This document shows, piece after piece, positions 878 through 54,414 of a stretch of 64,000 nucleotides of DNA. The notes below the pieces were generated by a model. That model did not search any database and was not told the origin of the DNA. It was given only the letters and a program-made list of their open reading frames with translations. The translations under genes and the position numbers were made by a program. The stretch is taken from positions 70,561-134,560 of IMG/VR virus record IMGVR_UViG_3300030616_000016. One strand, given 5' to 3'. The stretch comes from a virus. The stretch's first letter is position 1. Each line of letters opens with the position of its first letter.

Positions 878-2026
878 TTAGAACGAGTCAGCGCTTTCCT
901 TTTCTCTAACTGCTCTTTTTATTTGACTACTTAGTCTTGCGTGTGATTGCTTTTCTTTTGCTATGTCTTCTAATATTTCTATATCTTTACTGCTTAACAA
1001 CTTTCTTACTCTGATAATATCAAGGTGAGCAGCATATGATAGAGTTGCAAACAATGTTTCCAACTCCTTTTTATCACATTCATAATTCATGACTTTATGG
1101 ATCCACCCTTTATATTGCTTATATTTTTTGGATCCTATTCCACTAATTCTTCTTGCCATTGTTCTACGACTTATGTCAACTCCAAATACAACACCCAATG
1201 CACTTATTCTATTTATACCGCTTAACATAACTTTTGACTTATGTTTATTAAATCTCATTCCTTCTACTGCTACGGCCTTATTTGCGCACTTGAAAATATC
1301 ATTTATCCATTCTTTCCAGAATCTTTTAGATATGTAAGGCATAGAGCTACTTAGTTGTATGTCGTCAGCATATCTTGAATATCTGATCCTTCCATATGGC
1401 CAACCCATGCTTGACATTGTTATATCAAACTTTCTCATACATAGATTTGATATTACAGGACTTGATGGAGCACCTTGTGGTAATCCATTTGTCATTGAAA
1501 CAAGAGGTATTAATGGTATCTTATATTTTCTGCAGCATGTATCTACAGTATGTAATGATATAAGCATCTTTCTAATATGTTTTGCTTTAATAGATGGAAA
1601 GAAGTTCTTAATATCCATACTAATCATTATTCTAGCTCCATCATGTATCGACTGTAATTTGTTAATTGCAGTTTGGAAGCGTCTAGAACGTCTTAGTATT
1701 CTTCTAAAAGATTCTTGTGTTGTAAACAGCGGTTTTGGACTATATGCTAAGCTATGTCCATTTCTGTCATACTTTTGCAATAGCCATGAGACATATCTTT
1801 GTGCCGTTTTTAAGTCTTCGTCTGGCTCATGTAAATGCCTGATGCCACCTGATCTTTTTCTTATCATGTGGTGTGTATATCTTGAGTCTCTATCGTTTGA
1901 GTTTTGTTGTAAGTCTTCAAACAATTGCTGAATTGTAATACCAGATGGCAAGACTAGACTTAGAAAATTGTCAGGAGTTATATCATGAAGTCTCAGTTTC
2001 TTCTTTATCTGATTCTGTTCCATCAT
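878..2026 (-). CDS. Reverse transcriptase, retron/Abi-type (bacterial group-II-related RT)
   Basis: SGGIRHLHEPDEDLKTAQ; MDIKNFFPSI; GLPQGAPSSPVISNL; YSRYADDIQL (YADD catalytic box). The NFFPSI and LPQGAPxSPxxSN pattern is typical of retron-like RTs. The DGR-type I/LGxxxSQ motif is absent. Confidence 0.8.
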   Translation of the reverse strand: MMEQNQIKKKLRLHDITPDNFLSLVLPSGITIQQLFEDLQQNSNDRDSRYTHHMIRKRSGGIRHLHEPDEDLKTAQRYVSWLLQKYDRNGHSLAYSPKPLFTTQESFRRILRRSRRFQTAINKLQSIHDGARIMISMDIKNFFPSIKAKHIRKMLISLHTVDTCCRKYKIPLIPLVSMTNGLPQGAPSSPVISNLCMRKFDITMSSMGWPYGRIRYSRYADDIQLSSSMPYISKRFWKEWINDIFKCANKAVAVEGMRFNKHKSKVMLSGINRISALGVVFGVDISRRTMARRISGIGSKKYKQYKGWIHKVMNYECDKKELETLFATLSYAAHLDIIRVRKLLSSKDIEILEDIAKEKQSHARLSSQIKRAVREKESADSF

Positions 2027-3107
2027 CTCCGCCTTCCGATTCCGTATTGTCAGATATTAATTTGGTTATATCATTGTTTGCTGCAAATTCATATAGTGCT
2101 ATTATTCCTTGCACGCTTTCTTCGCCTATGTAGTAGTATCCACCACGCTTGGTGATTTTACCATCTACAATCATTTGATCTACTAAAAATCTTTCTTCAC
2201 TAAACCCATGATTAAAGATGAATGGATATTTTACTTCGGCTCCCTCCGGCATAGTACCAGACTGTCTAGTCTTATTGATTTTCATGTAATGCATGAAGCC
2301 AATAATTTTCTCTTTCTTCTTTCCATCTTCTTCTACAATGGCAGCTGGAGCTTCGCTTTTGCTACCTCTACGAGTCATCAGCCTTACGTGTGTAAAATGC
2401 TTAACCGCATTTCCTCCCTTAACGAGAGTTAGGTCACCATATCCACCAATATTGGTGTATATTTGACCAATCATTATGATTGTTGTGTTTGTCTTTGCTG
2501 CAGGACCACAAGCAAGTCTTAGGAACTGGCTCATTTTTCTTTGAAGAACACCGATGGTATCATCGTTTAGGCTACGGTTAGTACCGGTTTTACTTTCGAG
2601 TTCTGCGCGTGGAAGCAGACCGCCAATTGAATCAATAACTACGATGTCTACTAAATTCTCTCTCATAATGTCGAGACATTTATCTAGCATGTTCTCCATC
2701 GTATCTTTCTCAATTATAAAGAGCTCATCTGTATTGACTCCTTGTACTTTTAACCACTCTTTATCCAATGCTTCTTCTGCATCAACCCAGCATGCAATAC
2801 CATGGTTTTTCTGAACTTCTGCTACACATCTTGCACATGCAGTGCCTTTAGCTGTCTGTTCTGGTCCGGCGATTGTAACAATTTTACCTCTAGGAAAACC
2901 TCCGCCTAAATAGTCATCCCAGCCTTTAATGCCGGTTGATATTCTACCGTAATCCTCTAGTCCAAAATGTACAATTTGATTTTCATCATCGATGTCTTTG
3001 TTAATAGAAGTCGCTACTCTTTTTAGACGAGCCATCTTCTCTGCTTTTATATCTTGTGGAGATACAATCTTTTCTTCACTAGTATCTTTGCTTTTTCTCT
3101 TAGCCAT
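1983..3107 (-). CDS. recA: RecA-family recombinase
   Basis: Collinear with RecA: GGGFPRGKIVTIAGPEQTAKGT..., CWVDAEEALD, VVIDSIGGLLPRAELE, GGNAVKHFTHVRL. The 3' end overlaps the RT start by 44 nt. Confidence 0.85.
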   Translation of the reverse strand: MAKRKSKDTSEEKIVSPQDIKAEKMARLKRVATSINKDIDDENQIVHFGLEDYGRISTGIKGWDDYLGGGFPRGKIVTIAGPEQTAKGTACARCVAEVQKNHGIACWVDAEEALDKEWLKVQGVNTDELFIIEKDTMENMLDKCLDIMRENLVDIVVIDSIGGLLPRAELESKTGTNRSLNDDTIGVLQRKMSQFLRLACGPAAKTNTTIIMIGQIYTNIGGYGDLTLVKGGNAVKHFTHVRLMTRRGSKSEAPAAIVEEDGKKKEKIIGFMHYMKINKTRQSGTMPEGAEVKYPFIFNHGFSEERFLVDQMIVDGKITKRGGYYYIGEESVQGIIALYEFAANNDITKLISDNTESEGGDDGTESDKEETETS

Positions 3108-7477: not shown

Positions 7478-8476
7478 TTATTCTCCTTGATTGTCTTGTG
7501 CACTTACACGAAACTCAATGTTCTCTGATGCATCCCTAATAGCATTGATCATCTTATTGATGCCTTTGTCCGTGGCTTCCAATACATTATCATCAGCTTC
7601 TGGACAAAGCTTCGTGATTTTGTAGTCACAGAAGTGAGGAGTAAGTACACATGTACGAGAAGGGCTATCGCTATTTAGTATATTTGTTAGAGCTTCGCTA
7701 TCAACTGATGAAGTGTTAAGACCAGTAAAGAAATCATTGTTAAATTTAAGGAAGGCAACAACAGTAAAATTATTTCTTCCACTAGTTTTTCTGCTGATTT
7801 GCTCGCTCTTATATACTTCTGTCAAGATTCTAAATCCCTTGTAATAGCGGACATAGCCTTTATAGAAGTCTTCTGCAGTGATATATGCAAGCACAACGGT
7901 TCTTGGATCAGGATCATTTTTGGAGAAAGACTCACTGATCTCAAGCTCTTTAGTATTAGCACGAACCATGTCTATATATTCTTTTAATTTCTGACGCTTA
8001 AGCCTAGCAATTCTACGCTGTTCAATAATGTTAGAGATACTTCCAATGGCTTCATCAAGTACTCTAACGTTACGAATCGCAGACATAAGATCATATAGAG
8101 AGTTCTTATATATAACCGCAAAGCTCTCCAGTCTTTCAAGAGCAGCTTTAGCAACTGCTTCAGCATAACTTTGGTCGTCTATCATATTATCCATGATAGA
8201 ATCGACCTCTTTTTTTACTAGCTCCTCAGAACTGTGACAATATTCTGGTATAGTCTCTGAAATAGAATAGCCTATTGCATTTGCTAGTTCTGATGGTGTC
8301 ATATTGATTATTCTGCTGATGTTTCTTAATGTATCTCCATTAGCAACTAACCTTGGCAAAGGATTGTTGAAGTTAGGTGTATAGGAGCCTTTAACAATAA
8401 CATCAGGGATCATGATACTTAAATTTTCTGTAAGAAAATTGCGTATCTTCTCTCTTTCTGTTTTAGGTGTAGACAT
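7478..8476 (-). CDS. Hypothetical protein with HTH-like segment
   Basis: DTLRNISRIINMTPSELANAIGYS resembles an XRE-type HTH. Lies immediately downstream of the JAB gene. Confidence 0.5.
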   Translation of the reverse strand: MSTPKTEREKIRNFLTENLSIMIPDVIVKGSYTPNFNNPLPRLVANGDTLRNISRIINMTPSELANAIGYSISETIPEYCHSSEELVKKEVDSIMDNMIDDQSYAEAVAKAALERLESFAVIYKNSLYDLMSAIRNVRVLDEAIGSISNIIEQRRIARLKRQKLKEYIDMVRANTKELEISESFSKNDPDPRTVVLAYITAEDFYKGYVRYYKGFRILTEVYKSEQISRKTSGRNNFTVVAFLKFNNDFFTGLNTSSVDSEALTNILNSDSPSRTCVLTPHFCDYKITKLCPEADDNVLEATDKGINKMINAIRDASENIEFRVSAQDNQGE

Positions 8477-8492: not shown

Positions 8493-9485
8493 CTAGACTT
8501 TGTTGAAGTCTTTAATTACATGACTATGACATCTAGGACATTCCAGATTATTTTCATCATTAATTACAAACACATTATTACATGCAGGACATGTTATTCC
8601 TTCCTCTTCATCTGCATCTATAATAAGAGGATCAGTAATATGGTTATCAATTGGATCATCGATAGGATCGCCATATCCAGCCCAATTACGAATGTTTTGA
8701 GAAGTTCTGTGATGTCTGTTACCAAACCTAGGATTGTAATAGCTACCACCTATTGGAAACATAGTTGATTTTCCTTCAACTACTTCATCTTTGTCTTCAT
8801 CATATGAATGTGTAGTCATAGATTTTACAAGCTCATTTATCTCTTCTCTACATTTCTTATATGTTTCTGTGTAATCTGCAGTTACAACATTGAGATCAAT
8901 ATTGTCAATGACAAGCTTGGGGTTTTTCTGAACATATTTGACTAAGATGTTACCAGATTTATTTCCTACAAGCATTACTGCCCATCCATGTTGCTGAAGC
9001 ATCTCATCTGCAGCATCTACATCCTGTCCACTCCAGAATGTAGGCATGTTTACATGAGAATGCCAATGGAAATTCATGCGGCTGTATATTGATTTGCCAA
9101 TGTCTTGTTTAATAGTCAGCATATCTTCTTCTGATATATCATCAACAGATATATCTTTAAACTCCTCAGAGTCTTCAATATATTTGTTGATGTAGTTATC
9201 GATAATATCATGCTCTCCCTTAATGAGAGGAAGCTCAATTCTCTTACATCTGTCTTTATTACACAAACGAAAGTAGCCTGAGCTTGCTACTTGTTTAACG
9301 ATGAATACATTATCAATGATAAGATTACCATTCTTGTCTTGGATGATGGTACCAAGTCCACCACATTCGGTTGAACAAGCATTGATCCATCCTCTGATCT
9401 TTTCTCTTAGGATTGCTGGCATGTATATATTGATGCTTTCTTTAGTTTCTAAAGCATCTTTCTCGGATTCGTTCTTGATTTGCAT
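8493..9485 (-). CDS. JAB/MPN (JAMM) metallopeptidase with C-terminal zinc ribbon
   Basis: Exact JAMM signature HSHVNMPTFWSGQD (H-x-H-x7-S-x2-D) preceded by the conserved Glu in STECGGLG. C-terminal CPACN...CPRCH. RBS AAAGGAAAG lies before the ATG. Confidence 0.8.
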   Translation of the reverse strand: MQIKNESEKDALETKESINIYMPAILREKIRGWINACSTECGGLGTIIQDKNGNLIIDNVFIVKQVASSGYFRLCNKDRCKRIELPLIKGEHDIIDNYINKYIEDSEEFKDISVDDISEEDMLTIKQDIGKSIYSRMNFHWHSHVNMPTFWSGQDVDAADEMLQQHGWAVMLVGNKSGNILVKYVQKNPKLVIDNIDLNVVTADYTETYKKCREEINELVKSMTTHSYDEDKDEVVEGKSTMFPIGGSYYNPRFGNRHHRTSQNIRNWAGYGDPIDDPIDNHITDPLIIDADEEEGITCPACNNVFVINDENNLECPRCHSHVIKDFNKV

Positions 9486-9511: not shown

Positions 9512-10549
9512 TTATGATGCTGATGTATCTACGCGTCCATCAGGCAATAGTTTCAAGTCTTCTTTTTTTGCATATGCTTTCCAGTGGTCAATATCTGCAT
9601 ATGTATCGCCAGAATTACAACTTTCAAGATATTCTTTCAGAATGGCAAATATTACTCCATAACTACCACATTTAAGATACTGAGGAATGGCTCTGCTAAT
9701 ATTCCCCAAGCATGGACCACCATCAACATTAACATGAGGATGTGGATTTGAAGTTTCTTTACCTGGAGGTTCAATAACTGATGTAATGCGTATTCCTGTA
9801 CTATTATATGGAATACTAACAAGATATGTTCCCATATAATAGTACATGTCATTTTCTTTTATCCAGATAGGTGGTGTAAGCCCCTTAATTGAGTCTGGAG
9901 CGAACTCAATGTTAGCATATGCACCTGATTCATATAATTTCATTACTCCAGTAACTGCTTTGTCAATCATCATTTCTTTCTCTTCACCTTCAGGTATGTT
10001 TTCTATATCTTTTAACCTTTCCTTGGCTATTTCAAGGCGTTTCATAAGAGTAAGTTGATGTGTTTGACAAGCTTTCATTTGGTTTTCTGTGAGCCTCAAA
10101 GATGTGAGAAGACTAGTTTTCTCACTATCTACATTACCAAGAAGCTGACGATAAATACATTCCCGTACATCGTTTCTCTTGTTTGCAATGTCTCGTTGAG
10201 ATCTACGACTAGAGCCACTACCTCTTCTAGAAAGAATTATTCGCGCGTCTCTAAAACTTTTAAATGCGTTTGAGATTACTGCGTCAAATATATCTTCTCT
10301 AGAAGCAAGTATTTGTAAACAGTTTGGTGAATGGGTAATAGTTTTTCTTGACTCGTCAACAAAAGGTTCCCATACATTAGATATGTTAGGAATATCTTCA
10401 ATTGGTGTAGGATTTATAATGCAAAGAACCTCTGAAGTAAAATCCTGGAATCTATCACTAATGATAATGGTTTTTGTCAGAGAGATCTCAAATGTTCTGA
10501 AAACAGCAAATAAATCTGAGCTGTTTGCAACTCCCATATTATCAATCAT
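9512..10549 (-). CDS. E2 (UBC-fold)-like ubiquitin-conjugating enzyme with N-terminal coiled-coil extension
   Basis: The C-terminal 110 aa contain NPHPHVNVDGGPCLGNI, which mirrors the UBC HPN...G-x-x-CL active-site motif. It is preceded by a beta-meander-like segment (YYMGTYLVSIPY). Confidence 0.6.
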   Translation of the reverse strand: MIDNMGVANSSDLFAVFRTFEISLTKTIIISDRFQDFTSEVLCIINPTPIEDIPNISNVWEPFVDESRKTITHSPNCLQILASREDIFDAVISNAFKSFRDARIILSRRGSGSSRRSQRDIANKRNDVRECIYRQLLGNVDSEKTSLLTSLRLTENQMKACQTHQLTLMKRLEIAKERLKDIENIPEGEEKEMMIDKAVTGVMKLYESGAYANIEFAPDSIKGLTPPIWIKENDMYYYMGTYLVSIPYNSTGIRITSVIEPPGKETSNPHPHVNVDGGPCLGNISRAIPQYLKCGSYGVIFAILKEYLESCNSGDTYADIDHWKAYAKKEDLKLLPDGRVDTSAS

Positions 10550-10587
10550 ATTTGAAAGCCTTTCTGTGTTTTATGATTAGGGTAAAG

Positions 10588-10634
10588 AAAAGTCAAGTAC
10601 TATAGTAAGTGTTTACTATAATACTTGACTTTTT
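10588..10634 (-). terminator. Long hairpin after the Ubl gene
   Basis: aaaagtcaagtactatagtaa-gtgt-ttactataatacttgactttt gives a stem of about 20 bp. On the minus strand it is followed by TTTTCTTT. Confidence 0.5.
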
Positions 10635-10684
10635 TGTGGCCACATAACTACACAAAAGTGTAGCTACATTTTTAGGGCACTTTA

Positions 10685-10900
10685 CTACTTGCCGCCATCA
10701 ACCTTCTGCTGCAGAACGACGATGTCGCCGTTATCCAGGACTGTGTCGAGGTCAGCAGCGTCGCCGTTTACACGGACTTTACGACTGCCCAGCTCAACTC
10801 CAGCTGTTGCAAGAAGGTTCGCGACGGTTGCGTTTGCCGGAGTGAGGCTGTAAGTCTTAACTTCGCCTTCACCCTGAGCCAGCTGTACACATGTAACCAT
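10685..10900 (-). CDS. Ubiquitin-like beta-grasp protein (ThiS/MoaD-like) ending ...VDGG-K
   Basis: MVTCVQLAQGEGEVKTYSL...VRVNGDAADLDTVLDNGDIVVLQQKVDGGK. A consensus AAGGAG lies 7 nt before this ATG, so the track ORF start at 10936 is probably too long. The di-glycine is followed by one Lys. About 55% GC by hand count. Confidence 0.75.
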   Translation of the reverse strand: MVTCVQLAQGEGEVKTYSLTPANATVANLLATAGVELGSRKVRVNGDAADLDTVLDNGDIVVLQQKVDGGK

Positions 10901-10939: not shown

Positions 10940-11608
10940 TCAACTACAAGGCCACACTAGCCTGTAGTCCGCTGACCCTTTTAGAAACATTAATTCATCC
11001 ATAGATAAATTATGTTCATTTGCAACTATAAATCCTATGTTTCCGTAGTCATCGAATCTCATAAGAGATATAAAGTTTTCTATTCCGAACCTATTTTTTG
11101 ATTCGTTTCCACAATAAACGCAATTTGGAAATCCGTATAGCATTTTAGAACCACATAGACCACACTCTTCTTTAGACTCCAGTTTGTAAACTCTTAGTTC
11201 TTTTAGTATTCTTTCATTAATCATAAACGATTGTTGCCCAAGTTTTACCTCTGTACGTTCATGCAAATCTACAAGAGCATCAAATGGAATTCGATTGATC
11301 CAGTAATTTAATGGTCTTAAGCTAGCTGTTCTATTTCTATATATAAGTAAGTTAACTAGTATTTTGTCTGCACATATGGGAGAGCCTTCTTTAAAAATAT
11401 ATCCCATAATTTTATTAGTTCCAATAACATTTCTAGAGCTTCCAATTTCTGGCACTGCTAATGTTAAGCGATTTGGGCTTAGGACTATATCCCATTTCTT
11501 TGATAAATCTTGAGGCTCGTCTGGGTTGTGAGGAGTTATATGCGCCAGCTTTTCTTCTATAGCTCCACGAAATATTGAGCTTTTTCTTCGCTCTAGACAT
11601 TGCGACAT
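10940..11608 (-). CDS. Zinc-ribbon protein (start 11608 or 11407)
   Basis: CGLCGSKMLYGFPNCVYCGN. The ATG at 11608 has a strong AAAGGAGA RBS but lies inside the UvrD 3' end. An alternative ATG at 11407 has no RBS. Confidence 0.5.
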   Translation of the reverse strand: MSQCLERRKSSIFRGAIEEKLAHITPHNPDEPQDLSKKWDIVLSPNRLTLAVPEIGSSRNVIGTNKIMGYIFKEGSPICADKILVNLLIYRNRTASLRPLNYWINRIPFDALVDLHERTEVKLGQQSFMINERILKELRVYKLESKEECGLCGSKMLYGFPNCVYCGNESKNRFGIENFISLMRFDDYGNIGFIVANEHNLSMDELMFLKGSADYRLVWPCS

Positions 11609-13175
11609 ATACAACTCTCCTTTCGGACTCTATTTCGTCTTCTTCTACCATTGTGCATGGATAGTATCCTTCTTCCATCCCGCACATATAAACAATATCA
11701 AACTCAAGTCCCTTTACTCCGTGAACAGTAGCTATAGTCACATCTCCTGCATCGTTATCTGAGTTGCTTGTAAGTTTGATCTTATTTACTAGGTCAATCA
11801 TTGAGTCACAAGAGTCAGACATATAATCTATAATTTCATATAAGGATATCTGATACTTACTCTCGTCCATTTCATCAAGGAGTTTACAAGCATCTTTGAC
11901 TCCTTGCATATCATTGTTTAGGATCTTGTCTATTATCTCTACTATGTCCTCATTATCAACAAGAATTTTAGATTTTTCTTGGCTATTTTCTCTGTTAATA
12001 AATTGGTTAAGAAATCGTTTGCCTAATCCTCTTTTCAAGTATGCAAGAAATTGTGAGGTTCTTTCTATATTGATTCCGTCTTCTTTATTAATAGGATGAA
12101 GCCCACATATAAGATCAATAAGTCTTTTTGTCTTACCTCTTTCTGATAGTGACAGTCCACCTATTCTAGTATATGGTATAGCACGTTGATCAAAATATAT
12201 AGCTACAGTATCTAGTTGTCTATGTGTACGACCTAATATAGCCACTGAATTGCCAGCTTCCATATATCTTTGTATGTCTCGTGCCAAAAACTGATTCTCA
12301 TCAGATTCTGAGTTGAATGGATAGAAATCAACATTAGGTATACTAGCTTCTTCTGCAGTAATTTCACTGCTATAAGTATCTGCATTGCAGGATATTAGTT
12401 TATTACAATATCCAGCAATATGATTGTCAAATCTCCATGTATATGATAATGGAAGTACTTTGGCGCCTGATTCTTTTATGAGCATTTCTGTATTTTCGTA
12501 ACATGCACCACGAAATTGGTACAAGCACTGATTTTGGTCGCCTACTACTGTGAATCCTCTGTTAAAATCATACGTAAGTTCTTTAACCATATTGTATTGA
12601 ACAGTGTTGGTATCTTGCCATTCATCCACAATAATTCCATCGCAACCTACGTCTCTCATATATTCTATGGAGTCGTAAAGAAGATCACTGAAGTCTTTGA
12701 CATGGTTCTTTAGCTTGGTAGTTTTGTATATCTTAGCGAGAGAATCTAAGCTGTCTTGTACTGACAGATTATTTACTTCTACATTATTTTGAAGCTTAAT
12801 CTTTGCAGCTTCAAGTAAAAGCTTATAGATATCACTGTCAGGAGAGTATCCCATTTTCTTTATACAGCTTCTTATCAACTCTGTAGATTCGTTCTGGTCA
12901 ATAATCTCGAATTCTTGTTTGTTATTCTTGAGGAGTTGTAAGCCCAAGCCATGGAATGTTCCAATGAAAACAGCATTGTTCCCAGTTAGTCTACTTGTAA
13001 GTTCTTTTGCTGCCTTATTAGTAAATGTAATAGCAACGAACTTGTAATCTATATCAGCAACACCATAAGCTAATGTGGTTGTTTTGCCACTGCCAGGCGC
13101 AGCCATAACTACGTTTTTGTTGGCTGGGTCTTTCATATGCAAGATAATTGCTTGCTGTTCTTCAGTTGGATTCAT
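11433..13175 (-). CDS. UvrD/Rep/PcrA-family SF1 DNA helicase
   Basis: AAPGSGKTTTL (Walker A), TFHGLG, IIVDEWQDTN, VGDQNQCLYQFRGA, TVHGVKGLEFD, VYVAMSRAKKKL. The likely start is MNPTEEQQ at 13175; the track ORF extends to 13301. Confidence 0.85.
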   Translation of the reverse strand: MNPTEEQQAIILHMKDPANKNVVMAAPGSGKTTTLAYGVADIDYKFVAITFTNKAAKELTSRLTGNNAVFIGTFHGLGLQLLKNNKQEFEIIDQNESTELIRSCIKKMGYSPDSDIYKLLLEAAKIKLQNNVEVNNLSVQDSLDSLAKIYKTTKLKNHVKDFSDLLYDSIEYMRDVGCDGIIVDEWQDTNTVQYNMVKELTYDFNRGFTVVGDQNQCLYQFRGACYENTEMLIKESGAKVLPLSYTWRFDNHIAGYCNKLISCNADTYSSEITAEEASIPNVDFYPFNSESDENQFLARDIQRYMEAGNSVAILGRTHRQLDTVAIYFDQRAIPYTRIGGLSLSERGKTKRLIDLICGLHPINKEDGINIERTSQFLAYLKRGLGKRFLNQFINRENSQEKSKILVDNEDIVEIIDKILNNDMQGVKDACKLLDEMDESKYQISLYEIIDYMSDSCDSMIDLVNKIKLTSNSDNDAGDVTIATVHGVKGLEFDIVYMCGMEEGYYPCTMVEEDEIESERRVVYVAMSRAKKKLNISWSYRRKAGAYNSSQPRRASRFIKEMGYSPKPKSLNISSARNWKL

Positions 13176-13179
13176 ATTA

Positions 13180-13389
13180 TTAGTCTGTTGTAGTGTTAAG
13201 GTGGTATTCAATCTCATCAGTAATGGATTTGGTGTCTTTATGCAGCGTTTGTTCTCCCTTAATACTGAGTTTGTACTTATTTCTTTTCTTTGGATCTGCA
13301 TATTTTGTTATAGAGATGCTTATGCGTTCATCTTTCTTTTGTGCTTGTTCTTGCGGCTGTTGTGTTTGTTCTGTTACATCACCTGGCAT
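13180..13389 (-). CDS. Small Lys/Gln-rich hypothetical protein
   Basis: MPGDVTEQTQQPQEQAQKK... with GGAG before the ATG at 13389. Confidence 0.4.
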   Translation of the reverse strand: MPGDVTEQTQQPQEQAQKKDERISISITKYADPKKRNKYKLSIKGEQTLHKDTKSITDEIEYHLNTTTD

Positions 13390-14087
13390 TTTAATATATC
13401 TCCTAATTTGTCTAGGTCTGATAAAAGATCCCATTGTTTAAACATATGAAGGTCATTTATTAGTATTTTTTTACCACAGTAATAACATTCTGTAAAGTAT
13501 TCTGTGTGTGGACCAATTAATTTGTAGCGCAATATACCATCATTAAATAAATTATATGAAGCACATGAAGGACATAGGTATGGAATTAGTGCTAACATTG
13601 TTGATAGTATATTACCACGTTTTATACGAGCTGGATTTGATTTGTATATTGTTGTAAAACCAACTACTGAATTTAATAATGATCGAGACATAGCCCCAGA
13701 TGAATTTCTTCTTAATTCTTCTAGTATTGCTGTTTTTGAGTTTATTACTATGCGTTGACATGCAATACTAATACGTTGAACAGAATCATAATGCATATAA
13801 TCTGGATATATAGGTGGTATCTTTATCTCTGACATAGTTCCAATCATTTGTTCAATGATAGGTGTAACTGACCAGTTATACAAATCTCTTCCTACTAAAG
13901 AGCATCTTGTTATAGCACATGGAGGAACATATACATGTTTTTGATAACCGGGCGACAAATTATTAGTCATAGCTTTTGTAATGTCAGCATATGATACAGT
14001 AGGCACTGTCCATTTAGGGAGTATAGTGTTTTTAAGTTCTAGTGTGGAACAGATTGCTTTATTAAGACAGTTTATACATGGATGCAT
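13374..14087 (-). CDS. Cys-rich protein (multiple CxxC pairs)
   Basis: MHPCINCLNKAIC..., CPSCASYN...CYYCGKK. Lies between the E1 and Ubl genes. Confidence 0.5.
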   Translation of the reverse strand: MHPCINCLNKAICSTLELKNTILPKWTVPTVSYADITKAMTNNLSPGYQKHVYVPPCAITRCSLVGRDLYNWSVTPIIEQMIGTMSEIKIPPIYPDYMHYDSVQRISIACQRIVINSKTAILEELRRNSSGAMSRSLLNSVVGFTTIYKSNPARIKRGNILSTMLALIPYLCPSCASYNLFNDGILRYKLIGPHTEYFTECYYCGKKILINDLHMFKQWDLLSDLDKLGDILKCQVM

Positions 14088-14107
14088 TGCTCTTTTCTCA
14101 CAGAATA

Positions 14108-14575
14108 TTATTTAGATGTCTCGTATATTGCTTTGATGTCTATGTTTGATGAGTCTTCCAATAGTAATTTTACTAGTCCTATTTTATTCTTGCTGTTAAA
14201 TGAAGACATGATTGCTTTAAGTATATTATCATTGTATGCGCCACAAAATTGGCATATAATCGAGCTTCCCAGACACATACAATTTGAACATCTTTCTGTA
14301 AGTTTAGATGTAATACTTATATAATCGCGTGATATTGTTACTGGCAAGCAACCACAACTATCTATTGCCAAAATATCATAAGTATCGTTGTCTATGTATC
14401 CAACTATTATTTTTTTTGCACGCATAAATTCTTTATATATAAGGAGATTATAAGCATTATGTTCTACTTCAAATGGTATTAATATACTATCACTGTCTTG
14501 TAAGGGTTTTGTAGACCCTTCAGAAAGTGTAAGCCCAGTGAATAATATACGATCAAAACGACACGATTTACTCAT
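14108..14575 (-). CDS. Cys-rich protein, translationally coupled to E1
   Basis: CSNCMCLGSSIICQFCGAYN and SCGCLP. Its ATG overlaps the E1 stop (ATGA). Confidence 0.5.
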   Translation of the reverse strand: MSKSCRFDRILFTGLTLSEGSTKPLQDSDSILIPFEVEHNAYNLLIYKEFMRAKKIIVGYIDNDTYDILAIDSCGCLPVTISRDYISITSKLTERCSNCMCLGSSIICQFCGAYNDNILKAIMSSFNSKNKIGLVKLLLEDSSNIDIKAIYETSK

Positions 14576-15309
14576 GGTCTTTTATCCTTAAAGATATCCC
14601 ATGTCTTGAAATTAATATCTATTCCAAATGGAATTGTTTCTTCTGTTCCATTTGCAATATGATAAATACATGAGGATATCCAGCTTGCTGTCCACATTAC
14701 TGGAAATATAATGCTCTTTTCTGTACACTTGATATCAGGCATGTCTTCATCATTATCAAGATTGTTTTCCTCGAACAGCTGAACTTCATCTGGCATGTAA
14801 GGAAGTACTGCGTATGCTTCGCATTGAGTTGCTCCAATTCTTGAGTCTATAAACATGGAAATACGAGCCATATTTTGACAACTATATTCAAACAGGAGTT
14901 GTCTTGCCTTCATGTTATCGACGGCAGAAATAATAATGTCAGCTTTTCTAGCGTATTTGTCAACATCGTCTACGCTTTCAAGTCTGTCTTTATGAAATTC
15001 CCACTCCCAGTTGGGCTTTGAATATCCGCTTATAATCTTTTCAAGTTCAGCTACTTTTAGGGCTCCAGTTTGCCGCCAATTATAAATTTGGTTTGCCTGA
15101 TTATGGACTTCAATTGAATCAAAGTCTACAATAGTACATTTGGTGATACCCATTTTTGCCATAGCAACTGCAGCAAATGAACCTATGCTTCCAGCTCCAA
15201 GCATAAATACATTAAGCTTCATCAGCTTATCAATGTCAACTAGATCAAAGTGACCTTTATAAATTTCTTCATTCTCATTGAATACAAATTCTTCTTCCTG
15301 GTTAGACAT
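14572..15309 (-). CDS. E1-like adenylyltransferase (ThiF/MoeB/HesA family)
   Basis: LNVFMLGAGSIGSFAAVAMAKMGITKCTIVDFDSIEVHNQANQ (Rossmann GxGxxG and D-x-D...N-x-x-Q). AVDNMKARQLL. The ATG at 15309 follows AAAGGA; the track ORF starts at a GTG at 15336. Confidence 0.8.
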   Translation of the reverse strand: MSNQEEEFVFNENEEIYKGHFDLVDIDKLMKLNVFMLGAGSIGSFAAVAMAKMGITKCTIVDFDSIEVHNQANQIYNWRQTGALKVAELEKIISGYSKPNWEWEFHKDRLESVDDVDKYARKADIIISAVDNMKARQLLFEYSCQNMARISMFIDSRIGATQCEAYAVLPYMPDEVQLFEENNLDNDEDMPDIKCTEKSIIFPVMWTASWISSCIYHIANGTEETIPFGIDINFKTWDIFKDKRP

Positions 15310-15328: not shown

Positions 15329-16042
15329 CTACTCACCGAATATTGATTGCATCGAAAAGTATGTATAACATACTAGCTCATATTCCTGAATCCATTCTTC
15401 TCTTTTTGTTCCGCTTTTATCTCTTATGATGTAGCTCGGATGATAAAGACAGATTATTGGAATATCATTATTGTTATTGTTATAGTAAAATGTTTCTCCA
15501 ACTAAATCTCCCATTTTAGTTGTAGTATTTACATCTTTTATTAATGCTATAGCTGATTGTTTGCCAAGGCAAACAATCAACCATGGATCCAGTATTTCTA
15601 ATTCTTTGTGAAGAAATGGAATACATTCTTCAACACAGTCTGTGGGTGGAGGACAAGTTTTCTCACCTTGCCTGAATGGTTTGCATCTGGCTATGTTTGT
15701 TAAGTAGCATTCTGATGCTGGCAATTCGGCGGCTTCTGTCATCTCATTGAGTTCTTGTCCAGCTGGACCACAAAATGGGATGCCTTGGCTATCTTCCTGG
15801 GCCCCAGGAGATTCGCCGATAAAAACTATGTTGTATCGGTAGCTTCCTCTGCTAAAAACAGGACTAGATGCTATATTTCTTAGTCTGCATTTTGTGCAGT
15901 CTAGTACGTCCTGTTCTAAGTCTTGGAGCTGACTTTCTTTACTTATATTTTGAGTATCTCCAGACATTTTGCGTAAATCCACTAGGGGTTTTGAGTCTAA
16001 TGCGCTCTTTGTCAATACTGACAATCTCTGAGCCTGGTACAA
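15329..16042 (-). CDS. Uracil-DNA glycosylase, family 4 (start uncertain)
   Basis: CTKCRL..., IVFIGESPGAQEDSQGIPFCGPAGQELN, LYHPSYIIR. These are the family-4 UDG motifs. Confidence 0.8.
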   Translation of the reverse strand: MYQAQRLSVLTKSALDSKPLVDLRKMSGDTQNISKESQLQDLEQDVLDCTKCRLRNIASSPVFSRGSYRYNIVFIGESPGAQEDSQGIPFCGPAGQELNEMTEAAELPASECYLTNIARCKPFRQGEKTCPPPTDCVEECIPFLHKELEILDPWLIVCLGKQSAIALIKDVNTTTKMGDLVGETFYYNNNNNDIPIICLYHPSYIIRDKSGTKREEWIQEYELVCYTYFSMQSIFGE

Positions 16043-21865: not shown

Positions 21866-23164
21866 GTGACATTACCCCACGCCTAAAGGCGGGGGCTTCC
21901 TAATTCATCGAAAATTGCGTTCCATACTGGCTACGTCTTACATCTTCTCCAAAGGCTTTAGGTTCCCCTTGCCCAGGGGTACAAAATGCAAAATTCAAAA
22001 TATTACTAGATGCAAGGGCATCTCTATCGTGTTTGGCACCACAAGTGCAAGTCCAATATCTGTCACTTAGCTTAAGATTATTATTTATAGCGCCGCACTG
22101 GTTACACATCTTGCTGGATGGTTCAAATCTTCCTATAGTCAAAACATGCTTTCCATACCAACCTGCCTTATACTCAAGAAAGGTACGAAAAGTATACCAT
22201 CCAACATCAGAGATAGCCTTGGCCAAACAATGATTCTTCACCATTCCAGAAACGTTTAAATCCTCAAGACACACTGCTTGGTTCTCGTCAATGAGCCTTT
22301 TGGACAATTTATGCAAAAAATCTTTACGTTGATTAGAAATCTTCTCATGTATCAACGCTACCTTCCTACGAGCCTTGTTTCTATTTGAAGAACCTTTCTT
22401 CTTCTTTGATAATTGTTTTTGCTTTCTTGCCAATCTTCTTTCAAGTTTCTTTAGGTATCTTGGATTATCTATTTTCTCGCCTGTTGATAGTGTTGCAAAA
22501 TGTTTTAATCCAACGTCAACACCTACACTATTATCTCGTTCAGGATTACATTTGATAGGTAATTCTTCTCCATTGTCAACCAAAATAGAAGCAAAGTATT
22601 TCCCAGAAGGAGCCATGAATATAGTTACAGTTTTAATATTGCCTTCAAATTGTCTATGGAATTTGCATTTGATGCCATCACGGAATTTCATTACATATAG
22701 CCTATTATTATCAAAATCCACATTACTTCCTTGTGGAAATTGACAAGATTGCTTTTTGAATTTCTTCTTAAATTGAGGATATCTTGCCTGTTTCTTAAAA
22801 AACCGCCGGAAAGCATTGTCAAGGTTTCTAAAGGCCATTTGCAAAGATTGACTATTAACTTCCTTCAGCCAACCATGCTCAGATTTCATATGTTTCAATT
22901 GCTTTATCAAATCAAAACAGGAAGGAGATTTCCCCGTTTTTTGATAAGACTCTGTTTTCTTTTGGAGTCCCAAATTGTATATGAACCGTACACAACCAAA
23001 ATGCTTCACAAGAAGCTCCTGTTGTTTTTTGTTGGGGTATATTTTGTATTTATATGCTCGTATCATTATATTTATAGTATAGCACAGGTTTCTGTAAATG
23101 TCAAGAGAAAAACGCATTCTTATATCCCCATGGCTAAAGCCAGGGGTCTTACGAATGCACCTTG
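21866..23164 (-). mobile_element. IS200/IS605-family element carrying tnpB only (IS1341-like), 1.3 kb
   Basis: The ends are defined by comparison with copies at 33637-33883 and 62734-62781. The left end (LE) starts CAAGGTGCATTCGTAAGACCCCTGGCTTTAGCCATGGGG immediately after TTAT. The right end (RE) finishes CCCCCGCCTTTAGGCGTGGGGTAATGTCAC. Both ends have subterminal imperfect hairpins. No tnpA is present. Confidence 0.8.
21900..23066 (-). CDS. tnpB: TnpB (OrfB) RNA-guided-nuclease-family protein
   Basis: MIRAYKYKIYPNKKQQELL, GVDVGLKHFATLSTGEKIDNP (RuvC-I Asp), VCLEDLNV (RuvC-II Glu), CNQCG...CTCG (zinc finger), HDRDALASSNI (RuvC-III Asp). Confidence 0.9.
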   Translation of the reverse strand: MIRAYKYKIYPNKKQQELLVKHFGCVRFIYNLGLQKKTESYQKTGKSPSCFDLIKQLKHMKSEHGWLKEVNSQSLQMAFRNLDNAFRRFFKKQARYPQFKKKFKKQSCQFPQGSNVDFDNNRLYVMKFRDGIKCKFHRQFEGNIKTVTIFMAPSGKYFASILVDNGEELPIKCNPERDNSVGVDVGLKHFATLSTGEKIDNPRYLKKLERRLARKQKQLSKKKKGSSNRNKARRKVALIHEKISNQRKDFLHKLSKRLIDENQAVCLEDLNVSGMVKNHCLAKAISDVGWYTFRTFLEYKAGWYGKHVLTIGRFEPSSKMCNQCGAINNNLKLSDRYWTCTCGAKHDRDALASSNILNFAFCTPGQGEPKAFGEDVRRSQYGTQFSMN

Positions 23165-47417: not shown

Positions 47418-47759
47418 TCATAATAATGTAGAGCCGCATAAATCACAAATCTTCTGCTCTATATTAATATCTTTATTCCCACAAAATGGACATAATGCTA
47501 AATGAATGTTCTGAATGTCTGTTGATGTTAATGCTGCTGTATGCCAATAAGAGTCTATGACTATTGATTTATACTCCATGTGTATTCTAGATATTTTGAT
47601 ACTCTTGTTTGCTATAGTATTTGGAAGCCTGCATTGATACATTGTTGTACCATCTCCTTTATCATATATAGCACCATTAATAAGAGGAGAGTTTTCATCT
47701 TGTACATAAATTACAGACCATTGGTTTTCGTATGCAATAACACATTCTTCATAGGTCAT
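47418..47759 (-). CDS. Zinc-ribbon paralogue family member
   Basis: AAGGAG RBS before MTYEECVIAYENQ. C-terminal LCPFCGNKDINIEQKICDLCGS. Confidence 0.6.
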   Translation of the reverse strand: MTYEECVIAYENQWSVIYVQDENSPLINGAIYDKGDGTTMYQCRLPNTIANKSIKISRIHMEYKSIVIDSYWHTAALTSTDIQNIHLALCPFCGNKDINIEQKICDLCGSTLL

Positions 47760-47784
47760 TATGATACTCTCCTTCAATAATCAA

Positions 47785-48108
47785 TTAGTATTCTATAATG
47801 ACTTCTGGCTGTTTATACTCATTTGTATCTTTGTTAGTTTTAACCGGCGGCAAGACATTAATGATCCTACCATATGTGTCTTTTACTGTGCGGCTCGCTT
47901 CAAATTCTTCTTGTGTTAGTTCATTGGGATTGCCATACTGTTTGACCCATCCATTATATAGCTGCTTAGCATTTCTTTCTCTTTTTTGTATGATGCTTTT
48001 GCTGCTTCTAAATGTACATATAATCATTGATGAAAGTATGCAGATTATCGCTAATAGTACTACTAATTCAATAAAGGCAAACCCTTTATTACACTTTAAT
48101 ATTTTCAT
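47785..48108 (-). CDS. Protein with type-IV-pilin-like N-terminus (prepilin cleavage/methylation motif)
   Basis: MKILKCNKGFAFIELVVLLAIICILSSMI fits the G|F-x-x-x-E hydrophobic pilin signal. Confidence 0.55.
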   Translation of the reverse strand: MKILKCNKGFAFIELVVLLAIICILSSMIICTFRSSKSIIQKRERNAKQLYNGWVKQYGNPNELTQEEFEASRTVKDTYGRIINVLPPVKTNKDTNEYKQPEVIIEY

Positions 48109-48119
48109 GATATCTCCTG

Positions 48120-48488
48120 TTAGTCAATGTACCCATTTTTCTTAAAGCTAACTAATACTATCTTATTTTTCTCGCGATCATGTTGAAGCTTGATGTATAC
48201 TTTGGTATTACCTATTACTGTTTTGTATACATCCATATATTTTCTTACGTATAGATTTGCTTTTGTTGCATAAGCAAAATCTGGCTCTTTTAAGTTGAGC
48301 AGAGTTTCTACAACTTGGCTTTTTGAAAAGCTAAAGTCTTTTTGCGCATGATATCTCGCATCTCTTAATATCATATATCTATCATTCTTAATGAGAGTTT
48401 TTGCGCCTTCTAACTCAATAGAAGGCATGGCTCTCCTTTTTATGACAGGGAGATCTATGTCATTATTATTTGCTAAAGATACTTTCAC
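48120..48488 (-). CDS. mqsR: MqsR-family toxin-like protein
   Basis: LKEPDFAYATKANLYVRKYMDVYK...TKVYIKLQHDREKNKIVLVSFKKN aligns by eye with E. coli MqsR LSESDFYKSMTT...WQDVYR...QVYLKITVIHDVLIVSFKEK. Confidence 0.55.
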   Translation of the reverse strand: MKVSLANNNDIDLPVIKRRAMPSIELEGAKTLIKNDRYMILRDARYHAQKDFSFSKSQVVETLLNLKEPDFAYATKANLYVRKYMDVYKTVIGNTKVYIKLQHDREKNKIVLVSFKKNGYID

Positions 48489-48516
48489 TGGTCATTACTC
48501 CTCTGACAAAAAATGT

Positions 48517-48912
48517 TCATGGTAGTTCTGAATCGCAGCCGCAATTATTGCAAGCCTTATGCTTAATGTCTATATCTTGATTACCGCAATATTTGCATCT
48601 TATTACTTCAAGATCCTCAATTGATACATTTAGGTATAGAATTGTTTCTCCATCTGATACTGCAAATCCGCCTACATTCTCTGAATTTATCACATTAAGT
48701 TCATCTTTTACTATATCGACTCCTACAATATTTAGTGTCTTACCACGAAATATATCCACATAACAAGGCCCACAAATTGATGATTGTGAGACACAACCAT
48801 TTTCATCTATGTCAGCATGTCTTGCAGTTAAATTATATTCTTCATGTTCACCTATATTTAAGAATACAGGTGTTTTGTTAATATATGCCCGAACTGCCTC
48901 TTTGAACGTCAT
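48517..48912 (-). CDS. Zinc-ribbon paralogue family member
   Basis: MTFKEAVRAYINK... and C-terminal RCKYCGNQDIDIKHKACNNCGCDSE. Confidence 0.6.
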   Translation of the reverse strand: MTFKEAVRAYINKTPVFLNIGEHEEYNLTARHADIDENGCVSQSSICGPCYVDIFRGKTLNIVGVDIVKDELNVINSENVGGFAVSDGETILYLNVSIEDLEVIRCKYCGNQDIDIKHKACNNCGCDSELP

Positions 48913-49036
48913 GATTTATCCTCACGGTCTTTAAAGATTATCAATAGTATTTTTAGCGAAATAACATACAGTATGAGAATACCTAGAAATAGCTTTAACC
49001 ATAGAAATAGCATCGAATATTCTTCTCGATAGTATA

Positions 49037-49381
49037 TTATTTCGCTTCACGGACATCAATCCCAAGTTTGTCTTTAATCCACTTTGCAACAAGATGTCTG
49101 TGACAAAACTTCGTTGATCCTTCCCAGCATAATAGTATGGGTTCGCCGTCTACTAGCTCATGAATTTCATCATAAACTTCAGCGGCATTTAATTTACTTA
49201 GAATCTTGTCGTATTCTCGTACATAGGCTATTTTATCCAAGTTTCTTCTATAGGACTGTAATAATTCTTGTGATGGAGCTAATGTACGATATGTTGAGCC
49301 TATATAGAATTTTGGAGGAAATAGCGCTATAGACACTGCATCTGGATGAGTACCATAATTTCTGAAGTATGAAGTTTTCAA
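49037..49381 (-). CDS. DUF488-family protein
   Basis: LAPSQELLQSY...ILLCWEGSTKFCHRHLVAKWI (LLC.E....CHR..va.w). Confidence 0.6.
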   Translation of the reverse strand: MKTSYFRNYGTHPDAVSIALFPPKFYIGSTYRTLAPSQELLQSYRRNLDKIAYVREYDKILSKLNAAEVYDEIHELVDGEPILLCWEGSTKFCHRHLVAKWIKDKLGIDVREAK

Positions 49382-49614
49382 TTATCTTCTCCTTTGCTTT
49401 TATTATAATAGTATCTGTAAGCTTCTGTGGCTAATGCGCTCATCATAATTAGTGTGGAAGAACGATTGATATCATTTATTCTTATGAACTCATCAGTGAG
49501 CATACGTAATTTGCAATCGCCAATTTCTCCCTTATCTCTTAGAGTTTCATAATTAGATAGCAGTTCTTTTCTATCTTCGTCTGTCATTTCACCAATATAT
49601 TCTTCCATACTCAT
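49378..49614 (-). CDS. Hypothetical protein
   Basis: 78-aa co-directional ORF. Confidence 0.4.
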   Translation of the reverse strand: MSMEEYIGEMTDEDRKELLSNYETLRDKGEIGDCKLRMLTDEFIRINDINRSSTLIMMSALATEAYRYYYNKSKGEDN

Positions 49615-49617
49615 TAT

Positions 49618-50052
49618 TTAATCTCCATTGAGAGTTTCTATTGCACGCTCTTTAATGATTTCTTTTACTTTGTCTTCTATCTCATCCATTTTATCTTCAT
49701 CAAGATTATTTGATTCTGGTTTACGAGGACAGCTTGATTCCCAGTCACATTCGAAATCTACTGCAGATTTATCTGGTTCAATTGTGTATGTAGCACGACC
49801 ATGATAATCTTGATATCTCCAATCAGTACTTACTGTCTGTACTGATTTATAATTGGAGAGTTTTACTGTATTATGCTCTCTTGCTTCTTGTATATCATCC
49901 TGGATTTGTTCTTGTGTAACAATCTTATAGATTTGAGTAATATACTTTTTATTACAAGAAGTTTTCATAGCTGCATCATGTATGGTTTCTGCTTCTATGA
50001 TCTCGCTTTGTCCATTACAGCATAATACCTCAAAATGTGCTTTATTACTCAT
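49618..50052 (-). CDS. Hypothetical protein
   Basis: 144-aa co-directional ORF. Confidence 0.45.
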   Translation of the reverse strand: MSNKAHFEVLCCNGQSEIIEAETIHDAAMKTSCNKKYITQIYKIVTQEQIQDDIQEAREHNTVKLSNYKSVQTVSTDWRYQDYHGRATYTIEPDKSAVDFECDWESSCPRKPESNNLDEDKMDEIEDKVKEIIKERAIETLNGD

Positions 50053-50294
50053 TGCTTGTCCTCCTTCTCCATGAATTCAAGTGTATTGTAATCAATAGCT
50101 TTGAAGCCCTTCTCTTCGAATGTTTCCATATATTTAAGCTGGCGCTCAAGATCTTTCAACAAAGCTTGAGCATTTGCTCTAGGAGAGCCTTCTGCAGGTA
50201 TGTTCTTCTTAACAAGATCAATTTTATCTCTGAGCTTCTGCTTAAATACATTCCTGTGTTTCATTGTCTCAGGGATATTTACTTTATGTGGCAT
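50049..50294 (-). CDS. Hypothetical protein
   Basis: 81-aa co-directional ORF. Confidence 0.4.
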   Translation of the reverse strand: MPHKVNIPETMKHRNVFKQKLRDKIDLVKKNIPAEGSPRANAQALLKDLERQLKYMETFEEKGFKAIDYNTLEFMEKEDKQ

Positions 50295-50295
50295 A

Positions 50296-51069
50296 TTACT
50301 CCCTTTCTAGACAGAATGTCTCCATCATGTGATTTTGAACTCCTCTGTATTGCCATTGAAAAGTACAATTGACTCCCTTAATCTTAGGAAACTCTCCAAC
50401 ATTTCTATCTTGTATTTTGCTATTTCTTGAGTCACTCTGAATAGTTATGAAAATTAACTTACAATCGCTTTTGTTCACGAGATGTTTGACTGAAGATATT
50501 CTTTGATGCGTTAGTGGACCATTATAATCTAAGTGTGCTACATCAATGTCTATACGACTACATTTCTTGAGAAATGAATCGACATTCTGGTTTATCAGTT
50601 TTACATCCTTACTTAGCTTGCTCTTTATCGAGTTTTCGCAGATTGTATATATACTGTTTTTCGCCTCAAAGGCTAGAATGTTGTATGTATCTACTCCAAC
50701 CATGTTATTAATTATTACTAATTCAGTTCCTAGGTATGGTAGACATAGAAATTTGATGCTTCTTAGTCCTTTTGAGTGAATAATATTGCCTATGCTAGTA
50801 ATGCTATACCGCTTACCTATTGTGGCATATTTATCATTATTAGCGTCAATATTATTCTTTTTCTTAATGATTGGAAGGTTGGTTCTAACTTTTGTTTTGA
50901 TGTTATGCAAATGTGTCTCAACAGTTCTTGGCTTTATATCAAGCTTAGCTGATATTTGAGGAATAGAAAGACCACGCATGAATAGATCAACATGTTCTTT
51001 TTCTCTCTTTGTAAACAAATGCTTTTTATTAGAGACATCTGACGGCAAATGAACTTTTGTCCTATTCAT
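50296..51069 (-). CDS. LuxR/GerE-type HTH protein with uncharacterised C-terminal domain
   Basis: LFTKREKEHVDLFMRGLSIPQISAKLDIKPRTVETHLHNIKTKV. Confidence 0.6.
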   Translation of the reverse strand: MNRTKVHLPSDVSNKKHLFTKREKEHVDLFMRGLSIPQISAKLDIKPRTVETHLHNIKTKVRTNLPIIKKKNNIDANNDKYATIGKRYSITSIGNIIHSKGLRSIKFLCLPYLGTELVIINNMVGVDTYNILAFEAKNSIYTICENSIKSKLSKDVKLINQNVDSFLKKCSRIDIDVAHLDYNGPLTHQRISSVKHLVNKSDCKLIFITIQSDSRNSKIQDRNVGEFPKIKGVNCTFQWQYRGVQNHMMETFCLERE

Positions 51070-51310
51070 CTGGATTCCTTTCTGCTGAAGTATCTCTATC
51101 TGGTCCTCTTACTATTGATCTTAAACTCCATGATTTAGACTGTGGACAGGTTACGAAATGGCTTGTAAAGCATTCTGTTAAATGCCACTTCCCATTTTTA
51201 TCTTTTGTCCAAGCTTTTATTGGATCGACATCTAATGGCATACGTTTGCCATTGGCTGTTGTGATCCATTTAATATTTGCTTCACATGTTCTGCATTTCT
51301 CATATCCCAT
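51062..51310 (-). CDS. Small zinc-binding protein
   Basis: CRTCEANIKWITTANGKRMPLD...SHFVTCP (C-x2-C ... H-x3-C). Confidence 0.5.
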   Translation of the reverse strand: MGYEKCRTCEANIKWITTANGKRMPLDVDPIKAWTKDKNGKWHLTECFTSHFVTCPQSKSWSLRSIVRGPDRDTSAERNPDE

Positions 51311-51330
51311 ATCTTTCTCCTATCTTTGTT

Positions 51331-52754: not shown

Positions 52755-52761
52755 AGGTTAA

Positions 52762-54402: not shown

Positions 54403-54414
54403 GGTCTTTCTCCG

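Follow-up and report, generated by a model that had tools for sequence, protein, structure and literature searches.

A complete set of genes for a ubiquitin-like protein (Ubl) pathway, with an E1, an E2-like protein, a JAB/JAMM metallopeptidase and a Ubl, is present in a 64,000-nucleotide stretch of jumbo phage DNA (IMG/VR record IMGVR_UViG_3300030616_000016, positions 70,561 to 134,560; the whole stretch is called the window below). Five genes lie between the E1 gene and the Ubl gene. They encode a UvrD/PcrA-type helicase, three cysteine-rich proteins, here called CysA, CysB and CysC, and a small peptide. The five genes are real, and they very probably share a transcript with E1 and Ubl. The explanation we tentatively prefer is that they form a helicase module carried in a phage Ubl operon and co-expressed with a Ubl pathway that has no E3. 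An interpretation of the zinc proteins as RING-type E3s is not supported by their sequences.

The minus-strand reading, the open reading frame (ORF) list and the gene calls of the source contig agreed on the five genes, all of which had been listed in an earlier note on this DNA. That note had also named the flanking genes correctly: an E1, a Ubl, an E2 and a JAB enzyme. Their positions in the window, in the order of transcription, are as follows.

14572-15309, minus strand: E1, 245 aa (Pfam ThiF, 1.4e-21).
14108-14575, minus strand: CysA, 155 aa; its ATG overlaps the E1 stop codon as ATGA.
13374-14087, minus strand: CysB, 237 aa.
13180-13389, minus strand: small peptide, 69 aa; ATG at 13389, with an AGGAG ribosome-binding site.
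11433-13175, minus strand: UvrD/PcrA-type helicase, 580 aa; ATG at 13175.
10940-11407 (155 aa) or 10940-11608 (222 aa, from an ATG inside uvrD), minus strand: CysC, with a zinc-ribbon motif.
10685-10900, minus strand: Ubl, 71 aa; C-terminal end DGGK.
10582-10669, minus strand: two strong hairpins, one of 12 bp and one of 21 bp; UUUUCUUU comes after the second.
9512-10549, minus strand: E2-like protein, 345 aa; 135 nt separate its gene from the Ubl gene.
8493-9485, minus strand: JAB/JAMM metallopeptidase, 330 aa.

For comparison we used the contigs of the only two related phages found, L002/L003 and L004, which were reached through the homologues P0003 and P0004 of the E2-like protein. From E1 to Ubl, the spacers are 0-40 nt long or the genes overlap; in L004, nearly all the junctions from E1 to CysC are overlaps. 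The hairpin region after Ubl in the window had a predicted RNA fold of -43.7 kcal/mol (z = -6.6). A hairpin with a U-run is found directly 3' of Ubl also in L002 (9835-9930, z = -4.4) and in L004 (5365-5405, z = -3.9). These hairpins suggest a terminator-like end of a transcription unit that runs from E1 to Ubl. Because the genes are tightly packed and a terminator-like hairpin closes the unit just past Ubl in each of the three genomes, co-expression of the five genes with E1 and Ubl is likely. The same site divides the Ubl set into two units, one from E1 to Ubl and the other with E2 and JAB. A scan for sigma-70 promoters was uninformative (58 matches, 51 expected).

The helicase gene is complete, as had been claimed for it. 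Its product matched the Pfam families UvrD-helicase (PF00580, 7.8e-37) and UvrD_C (PF13361, 5.8e-37), both above cutoff, as well as PHROG 1967 (5.7e-92). Motifs I, II, III, V and VI (GSGKT, DEWQDTN, GDxxQxLYxFRGA, TVHxVKGLEFD and SERRxxYVAxSRAK) are invariant in the three genomes. With the N- and C-terminal UvrD helicase domains and all core motifs intact, the protein is a superfamily 1A (SF1A) helicase like UvrD, PcrA and Rep. Its scores were below the NCBIfam equivalog cutoffs for pcrA (232 bits against 911; 9.9e-69) and uvrD (205 against 1144), and no helicase of GenBank phages exceeds about 30% identity to it. Compared with the NCBIfam pcrA and uvrD models (length 715-725), the phage protein is shorter, at 580 aa, and is then followed by an overlapping zinc-ribbon ORF. 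Since it stops about 37 aa past motif VI, it has no C-terminal accessory domain.

The overlapping ORF is that of CysC. In the window (11433-11614), L002 (8922-9103) and L004 (4466-4629) alike, no stop codon interrupts this ORF, which is in the +1 frame, over roughly the last 58 codons of uvrD. As a background for such openness, 2.4% of stretches in the genome are stop-free, and 2 of 50 genes have an open frame across their final 58 codons. An ATG that could serve as an internal start of CysC is at the same place inside motif VI of uvrD in each of the three genomes. Both the window and L002 have AGGAGA ahead of it, 7 nt away; in L004 the sequence ahead of it is AGGCGG. The AGGAGA, which resembles a Shine-Dalgarno sequence, is made from AGG, a codon used for 13% of Arg here. 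The first ATG for CysC past the uvrD stop is at 11407. Judging from these sequences, CysC is probably a 222-aa protein with its translation start inside uvrD; a +1 frameshift extension of UvrD is less likely. On either view, the conserved open frame and the internal start tie CysC to the helicase.

L002 and L004 are syntenic with the window from a DEAD/ResIII helicase gene to RecA. The order in L002 is E1, CysB, peptide, UvrD, CysC, Ubl, E2 and JAB, with a spacer of 41 nt between E1 and CysB. The order in L004 is E1, CysA, CysB, peptide, three extra tandem CxxC genes, UvrD, CysC, Ubl, E2 and JAB. Between E1 and Ubl, each of the three genomes has CysB, the peptide, UvrD and CysC, and two have CysA as well; CysA was not found in L002, which retains E1, Ubl, E2 and JAB. 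The Cys signature of CysA is confined to the window's own contig and L004; the window has a single occurrence of it, where 0 were expected. The three extra genes (L004 2050-2941), between the peptide gene and uvrD, are found in L004 only and encode paralogous CxxC proteins of 89-96 aa that start with MDAAT. Their insertion indicates gene flux inside the block.

Identity to the window proteins, in L002 and L004 respectively, was 70% and 56% for Ubl, 67% and 54% for E1, 57% and about 45-46% for E2, 54% and 41% for UvrD, 52% and 42% for JAB, and 52% and 41% for the peptide. It was lower for CysB (34% and 27%), CysC (27% and 24%) and CysA (absent from L002, 25% in L004). With identities of 24-34% for the Cys proteins and 41-70% for the enzymes, the former evolve two to three times as fast.

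P0003 (57% identity) and P0004 (about 45-46%) are the only two homologues of the E2-like protein in a set of 5.8 billion proteins. A search for further carriers of the Ubl set in IMG/VR, JGI metagenomes, GTDB genomes and GenBank phages, with E2, JAB, E1 and Ubl as queries, returned just one 1.4-kb fragment of the L004 phage. Distant UvrD loci in other jumbo phages (L006-L010, 23-27% identity) had no Ubl set, and no homologues of the Cys proteins or the peptide were detectable near them. Co-occurrence with the Ubl set was seen in 3 of 3 genomes for CysB, the peptide, UvrD and CysC and in 2 of 3 for CysA, all within one syntenic lineage, so that this comparison has limited power. The earlier note had named the absence of a Cys-rich protein from a relative with the Ubl set as a result that would refute its proposal, and this is what L002 shows for CysA. 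Since synteny extends across the entire region in the three genomes, finding the genes together there does not by itself point to a link in function.

CysA, CysB and CysC have the two conserved CxxC knuckles of predicted zinc ribbons, and these knuckles are invariant in all of their homologues. CysA carries CSNCMCLGSSIICQFCG and, as the earlier note said, begins with an ATG that overlaps the E1 stop; this ATGA overlap recurs in L004. It has a predicted beta-rich N-terminal part, a knuckle of the form C-x2-C-x-C-x6-C-x2-CG (C96, C99, C101, C108 and C111) and a C-terminal tail. A model of CysA alone was unusable (predicted local distance difference test score, pLDDT, 35.5). Residues 71-108 of CysA showed a weak likeness to the KOW domain of archaeal Spt5/NusG (PDB 3p8b_B, E about 1; PVTIxxDY in common), which hints at an SH3-like barrel ahead of the zinc knuckle.

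The several CxxC pairs reported for CysB turned out to be three CxxC pairs and a PC-x4-C. They form two separate predicted zinc sites, C4/C7/C57/C62 and C172/C175/C201/C204, more than 100 residues apart. CysB also has the conserved motifs PARxK and KQW and, with an isoelectric point of 8.9, is the sole clearly basic protein of a block that is mostly acidic. The ligands of CysC, CxxC-x10-CxxCG, are four conserved cysteines. The N-terminus of the peptide is polar and rich in Gln and Glu, and its C-terminal part of about 45 aa is Lys-rich and conserved (RISISITKYADPKKRNKYKLSIKGEQTLHKD..EIEYHL). Its gene overlaps the end of CysB by 16 nt, and its stop is 4 nt ahead of the uvrD ATG. The gene call of the source contig gives it 84 aa; both relatives support the 69-aa start.

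In Pfam, PHROGs, NCBIfam and PADLOC, no family scored above noise for CysA, CysB, CysC, the peptide or their homologues in the relatives, and the Cys proteins of the relatives showed weak, sub-threshold matches to zinc-ribbon Pfam families. Profile searches of the PDB with alignments of the four proteins gave non-significant Cys-motif noise alone. No homologue of CysA was found in the word-indexed set of 5.8 billion proteins. When CysB was run with HMMER against all of 1.84 billion representatives, the only matches were CysB itself, its L002 homologue and one spurious repeat protein. The last, P0006, is a eukaryote-type HYR/EGF repeat protein of 2481 aa; its E value of 2.4e-19 is the sum of 18 weak repeat matches, and we rejected it as a repeat-inflated artefact. 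Paralogy of CysA and CysC was likewise rejected: an hhalign probability of 81% was confined to the ribbon and the tail, and was not robust.

The three Cys proteins resemble generic zinc ribbons or rubredoxin-like knuckles in having two CxxC knuckles, 6-25 residues apart, that are conserved across homologues. They differ from these in that the knuckles of each are attached to a lineage-specific domain. The earlier note had linked them to RING-like E3s and to Ubl-system adaptors. We searched them and their homologues with a permissive form of the RING pattern, C-x2-C-x9-39-C-x1-3-H-x2-3-C/H-x2-C-x4-48-C-x2-C, which binds two zinc ions, and there was no match. RING needs eight ligands in a cross-brace, whereas the numbers of conserved ligands are five in CysA, four and four in CysB, and four in CysC. 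Searches of Pfam, NCBIfam, PHROG, PADLOC and the PDB did not connect CysA, CysB or CysC with RING, U-box or any other treble-clef E3 family. With single C4 or C5 knuckles, no eight-ligand cross-brace and no family or PDB match, these proteins give the RING proposal no support.

Motifs of this kind are frequent in the window. Paired CxxC motifs were present in 19 of about 100 naive window genes (about 19%); for 3 of the 5 genes of the block, this gives a binomial P of about 0.05. An exact 4-nt overlap was seen in 7 of 99 adjacent gene pairs, and some overlap in about one third. By these base rates, Cys-richness and an ATGA junction are ordinary for this genome. The E1-CysA junction had been read as translational coupling that argues for a functional link, which was the main argument; such overlaps are common, and CysA is dispensable in L002. 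The window also contains a family of seven small paralogous proteins (103-157 aa) at 47418, 48517, 54415, 54757, 55555, 56325 and 58074 (window 47418-58403). Most of them have a C-terminal CxxC..CxxC, and they have no Pfam assignment. CysA, CysB and CysC showed no detectable relation to this family.

The Ubl set appears to have what Ubl conjugation generally requires, namely an E1, an E2 with an HPN-like motif and a Cys (its fold weakly supported), a Ubl with GG and a JAMM enzyme. The E1 is a single-domain ThiF-type protein whose best PDB match was the minimal E1 UBA5 (1.3e-9) and whose best PADLOC matches were CBASS (cyclic oligonucleotide-based antiphage signalling system) E1-E2 models (up to 5.5e-18). 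Its conserved cysteines are C58, C195 and C214, with Cys195 in KCTEKSIIFPVM (KCTEKS), and it has no CxxC zinc site. The idea of a split E1, in which CysA gives the missing zinc site in trans, was rejected: the E1 of L002 is also without the site and has no CysA beside it, and the knuckle of CysA is self-contained.

The Ubl is ThiS/MoaD-like, with a weak match to Pfam ThiS (0.0025; 0.0028 for the L004 homologue). Its GG is followed by K in the window and by KIS and TAGALAA in the relatives (1-7 residues). These residues after the GG imply that the JAB peptidase processes the Ubl. No other 216-nt stretch of the 64-kb window is as rich in GC as the Ubl gene (GC 0.55). The GC content of this gene at third codon positions is 0.56, against 0.19-0.31 in the immediate neighbour genes and 0.19-0.41 across the block from the DEAD helicase to p411. 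The Ubl gene of L002, judged by eye, is likewise GC-rich against AT-rich flanks. Recent transfer or selection for expression could explain this richness.

The E2-like protein consists of an N-terminal region of unknown fold, a coiled coil and a C-terminal UBC-like domain, with an invariant PHPHV..G.PC280LGNIS. In an hhalign alignment with UBE2D2, HPH and C280 fell on HPN and C85, and NPGD on NPDD, at low probability. The order of secondary structures in an AlphaFold2 model fits the UBC fold (pLDDT 52), and the top Foldseek matches were RWD domains of Knl1 (E 0.1). The protein had no Pfam match, and neither it nor the Ubl matched a PADLOC model. JAB matched Pfam Prok-JAB (0.0018) and PADLOC JAB (6e-4; weak CBASS JAB models). 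It has an invariant HWHSH..S..D and a C-terminal zinc ribbon (C299, C302, C316 and C319). The gene directly after JAB, conserved in 3 of 3 genomes, encodes a protein of 310-374 aa (window 7478-8476, L002 12055-13179, L004 7503-8435) and could belong to the Ubl unit.

To our knowledge, the bacterial Ubl pathways (Bil, CBASS Cap2/Cap3 and Bub) have so far been described as host defences, encoded in compact operons without an E3. In type II CBASS, the E1-E2 fusion Cap2 and the JAB enzyme Cap3 prime their cyclase. The phage set is like this system in the best defence matches of its E1 (CBASS E1-E2, 5.5e-18) and in the weak CBASS matches of its JAB. It is unlike it in that E1 and E2 are separate proteins, no CD-NTase or effector is present, and the Ubl is free. 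The anti-phage Bil (bacterial ISG15-like) pathway has an E1, an E2, a deubiquitinase and a Ubl without an E3 (PMC10557695), so that by precedent an E3 is not required. Its Ubl must expose a C-terminal Gly, its E1, BilD, has tandem IAD/AAD domains and a four-Cys zinc site that is also found in the SUMO and NEDD8 E1s, and its genes are contiguous in the order bilA-B-C-D (PMC10557695). The phage set, too, has a separate E1, E2, JAB-type enzyme and Ubl. In contrast to BilABCD, it is encoded by a phage, its E1 is a single 245-aa ThiF domain without the tandem adenylation domains and the four-Cys site, and its genes are non-contiguous, E1 being parted from Ubl-E2-JAB by the helicase and four small genes. 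In these respects it does not belong to BilABCD.

Under the explanation we prefer, the module would be UvrD with CysC, probably joined by CysB and the peptide. These small zinc-ribbon or basic proteins would be accessory subunits that contact DNA or a partner and take the place of domains that cellular UvrD has within itself. CysA would be an optional accessory. The Ubl pathway beside them would be a minimal one, with E1, an E2 with HPH..Cys, a JAB that trims the residues past GG, and Ubl, but without an E3. From the co-expression, the helicase module and the Ubl pathway would serve one process, phage DNA replication or repair; the module would act in it, and it may be among the targets of that pathway.

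Several points weigh against a helicase module. The link of the Cys proteins and the peptide to the helicase comes from gene order, overlap and charge. With three syntenic genomes, the conservation of order could be plain descent. As the distant jumbo-phage relatives of UvrD (23-27% identity) have no homologues of CysB, CysC or the peptide nearby, a general association of the helicase with these accessories is not demonstrated. The ATGA coupling of E1 and CysA in two genomes fits a partner of E1 equally well.

In another explanation, that of the earlier note, one or more zinc-ribbon proteins are E3-like adaptors or specificity factors. They would attach to E2~Ubl (or E1) on one side and to a target on the other, and the helicase would be a partner or a substrate. 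The Ubl operon of the archaeon Caldiarchaeum reportedly encodes a small RING-finger E3 together with Ubl, E1, E2 and a Rpn11-like JAB. A small zinc-binding protein in one operon with Ubl enzymes is thus a feature shared with the phage, and CysB and CysC are between E1 and Ubl in every genome that has the Ubl set. The E1-CysA overlap in the window and L004 and the apparent co-transcription with Ubl would agree with an adaptor, and the fast evolution of the Cys proteins (24-34% identity) would suit target recognition. The archaeal RING protein, however, has an eight-ligand cross-brace, whereas CysA, CysB and CysC have single C4 or C5 knuckles and no similarity to RING, U-box or any family. CysA is dispensable in L002, 19% of the window genes share this type of motif, and the co-occurrence is limited to syntenic close relatives. 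Of the bacterial Ubl pathways characterised so far, none requires an E3 (PMC10557695). We therefore consider adaptors unlikely.

Alternatively, the helicase or its complex could be a regulated substrate. Conjugation by E1 and E2 and removal by JAB would then switch the activity or location of UvrD, on the model of Cap2/Cap3 in CBASS, which would leave the zinc proteins as bystanders or as subunits of the helicase. The retention of uvrD in the E1/Ubl transcription unit, upstream of Ubl, would fit this explanation, as would the best defence matches of E1 to CBASS E1-E2. The neighbourhood is also one of DNA repair and replication: the block is surrounded by DNA-metabolism genes for a DEAD/ResIII helicase, UDG, UvsX/RecA, a ligase-like protein and a reverse transcriptase (RT)-like polymerase. 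This context is the whole basis of the explanation, no conserved acceptor site was identified, and the distant UvrD homologues of jumbo phages occur without a Ubl set. A regulated substrate of this kind seems to us doubtful.

It is quite improbable that the genes have no functional link, the small Cys proteins being fast-turnover accessory genes (for example, for host takeover or anti-defence) kept in order by descent: gene flux in the block (CysA present or absent, the three extra CxxC genes of L004), the restriction of the Cys proteins to this lineage and a genome rich in small zinc-ribbon genes, including the paralogue family at 47-58 kb, would agree with it, but CysB, the peptide and CysC hold their exact positions and overlaps at 41-57% core-enzyme divergence while other small genes come and go, and the frame of CysC runs into uvrD, where its internal start is conserved.

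The window comes from a 231.6-kb metagenome contig (ERZ27252234:k141_1275754 in the European Nucleotide Archive). All of its genes are on the minus strand, its GC content is about 36%, and no tRNAs were found in it. No nucleotide match to the window was found among GenBank phages. It also encodes a beta-like protein of a phage multisubunit RNA polymerase, UvsX/RecA, a ligase-like protein, NAMPT and the RT-like polymerase. Next to E1 is the following gene.

15329-15967, minus strand: UDG, the upstream neighbour of E1.

The RT-like polymerase gene (window 878-3107) is directly downstream of UvsX/RecA. The same pair is present in L002 (17700-19817), with an RVT_1 match there. An IS605 OrfB/TnpB (Cas12f-like) gene is also located within the phage genome (window 21900-23117; Pfam HTH_OrfB_IS605, OrfB_IS605 and Cas12f1-like_TNB).

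The helicase and the Ubl pathway might be joined more closely than in the explanations above. The phage Ubl pathway would then be wired to the UvrD-family helicase through dedicated non-RING zinc-ribbon adaptors, and Ubl attachment and removal by JAB would control the helicase complex in DNA replication or repair. We regard this as improbable. The yeast helicase Srs2, a member of the UvrD family, is recruited by SUMO-PCNA. It serves as an analogy only, in that a UvrD-family helicase is linked to Ubl modification where DNA is replicated or recombined; in the phage, a RecA/UvsX gene is nearby. If such wiring were true, the phage system would be a viral prokaryotic counterpart of Srs2 with SUMO-PCNA, and its adaptors would be a new kind of E3-like protein.

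A jumbo phage thus carries a complete E1/E2/JAB/Ubl set amid DNA-metabolism genes, with a helicase module conserved between E1 and Ubl. If the five genes encode helicase accessories only, their position would reflect ordinary phage gene packing, and the presence of zinc ribbons would be an unfit argument for calling E3s in such operons. If the helicase or its zinc partners are targets or adaptors, they would provide a concrete substrate for a viral Ubl pathway and, for prokaryotes, the first specificity factor that is not a RING protein.

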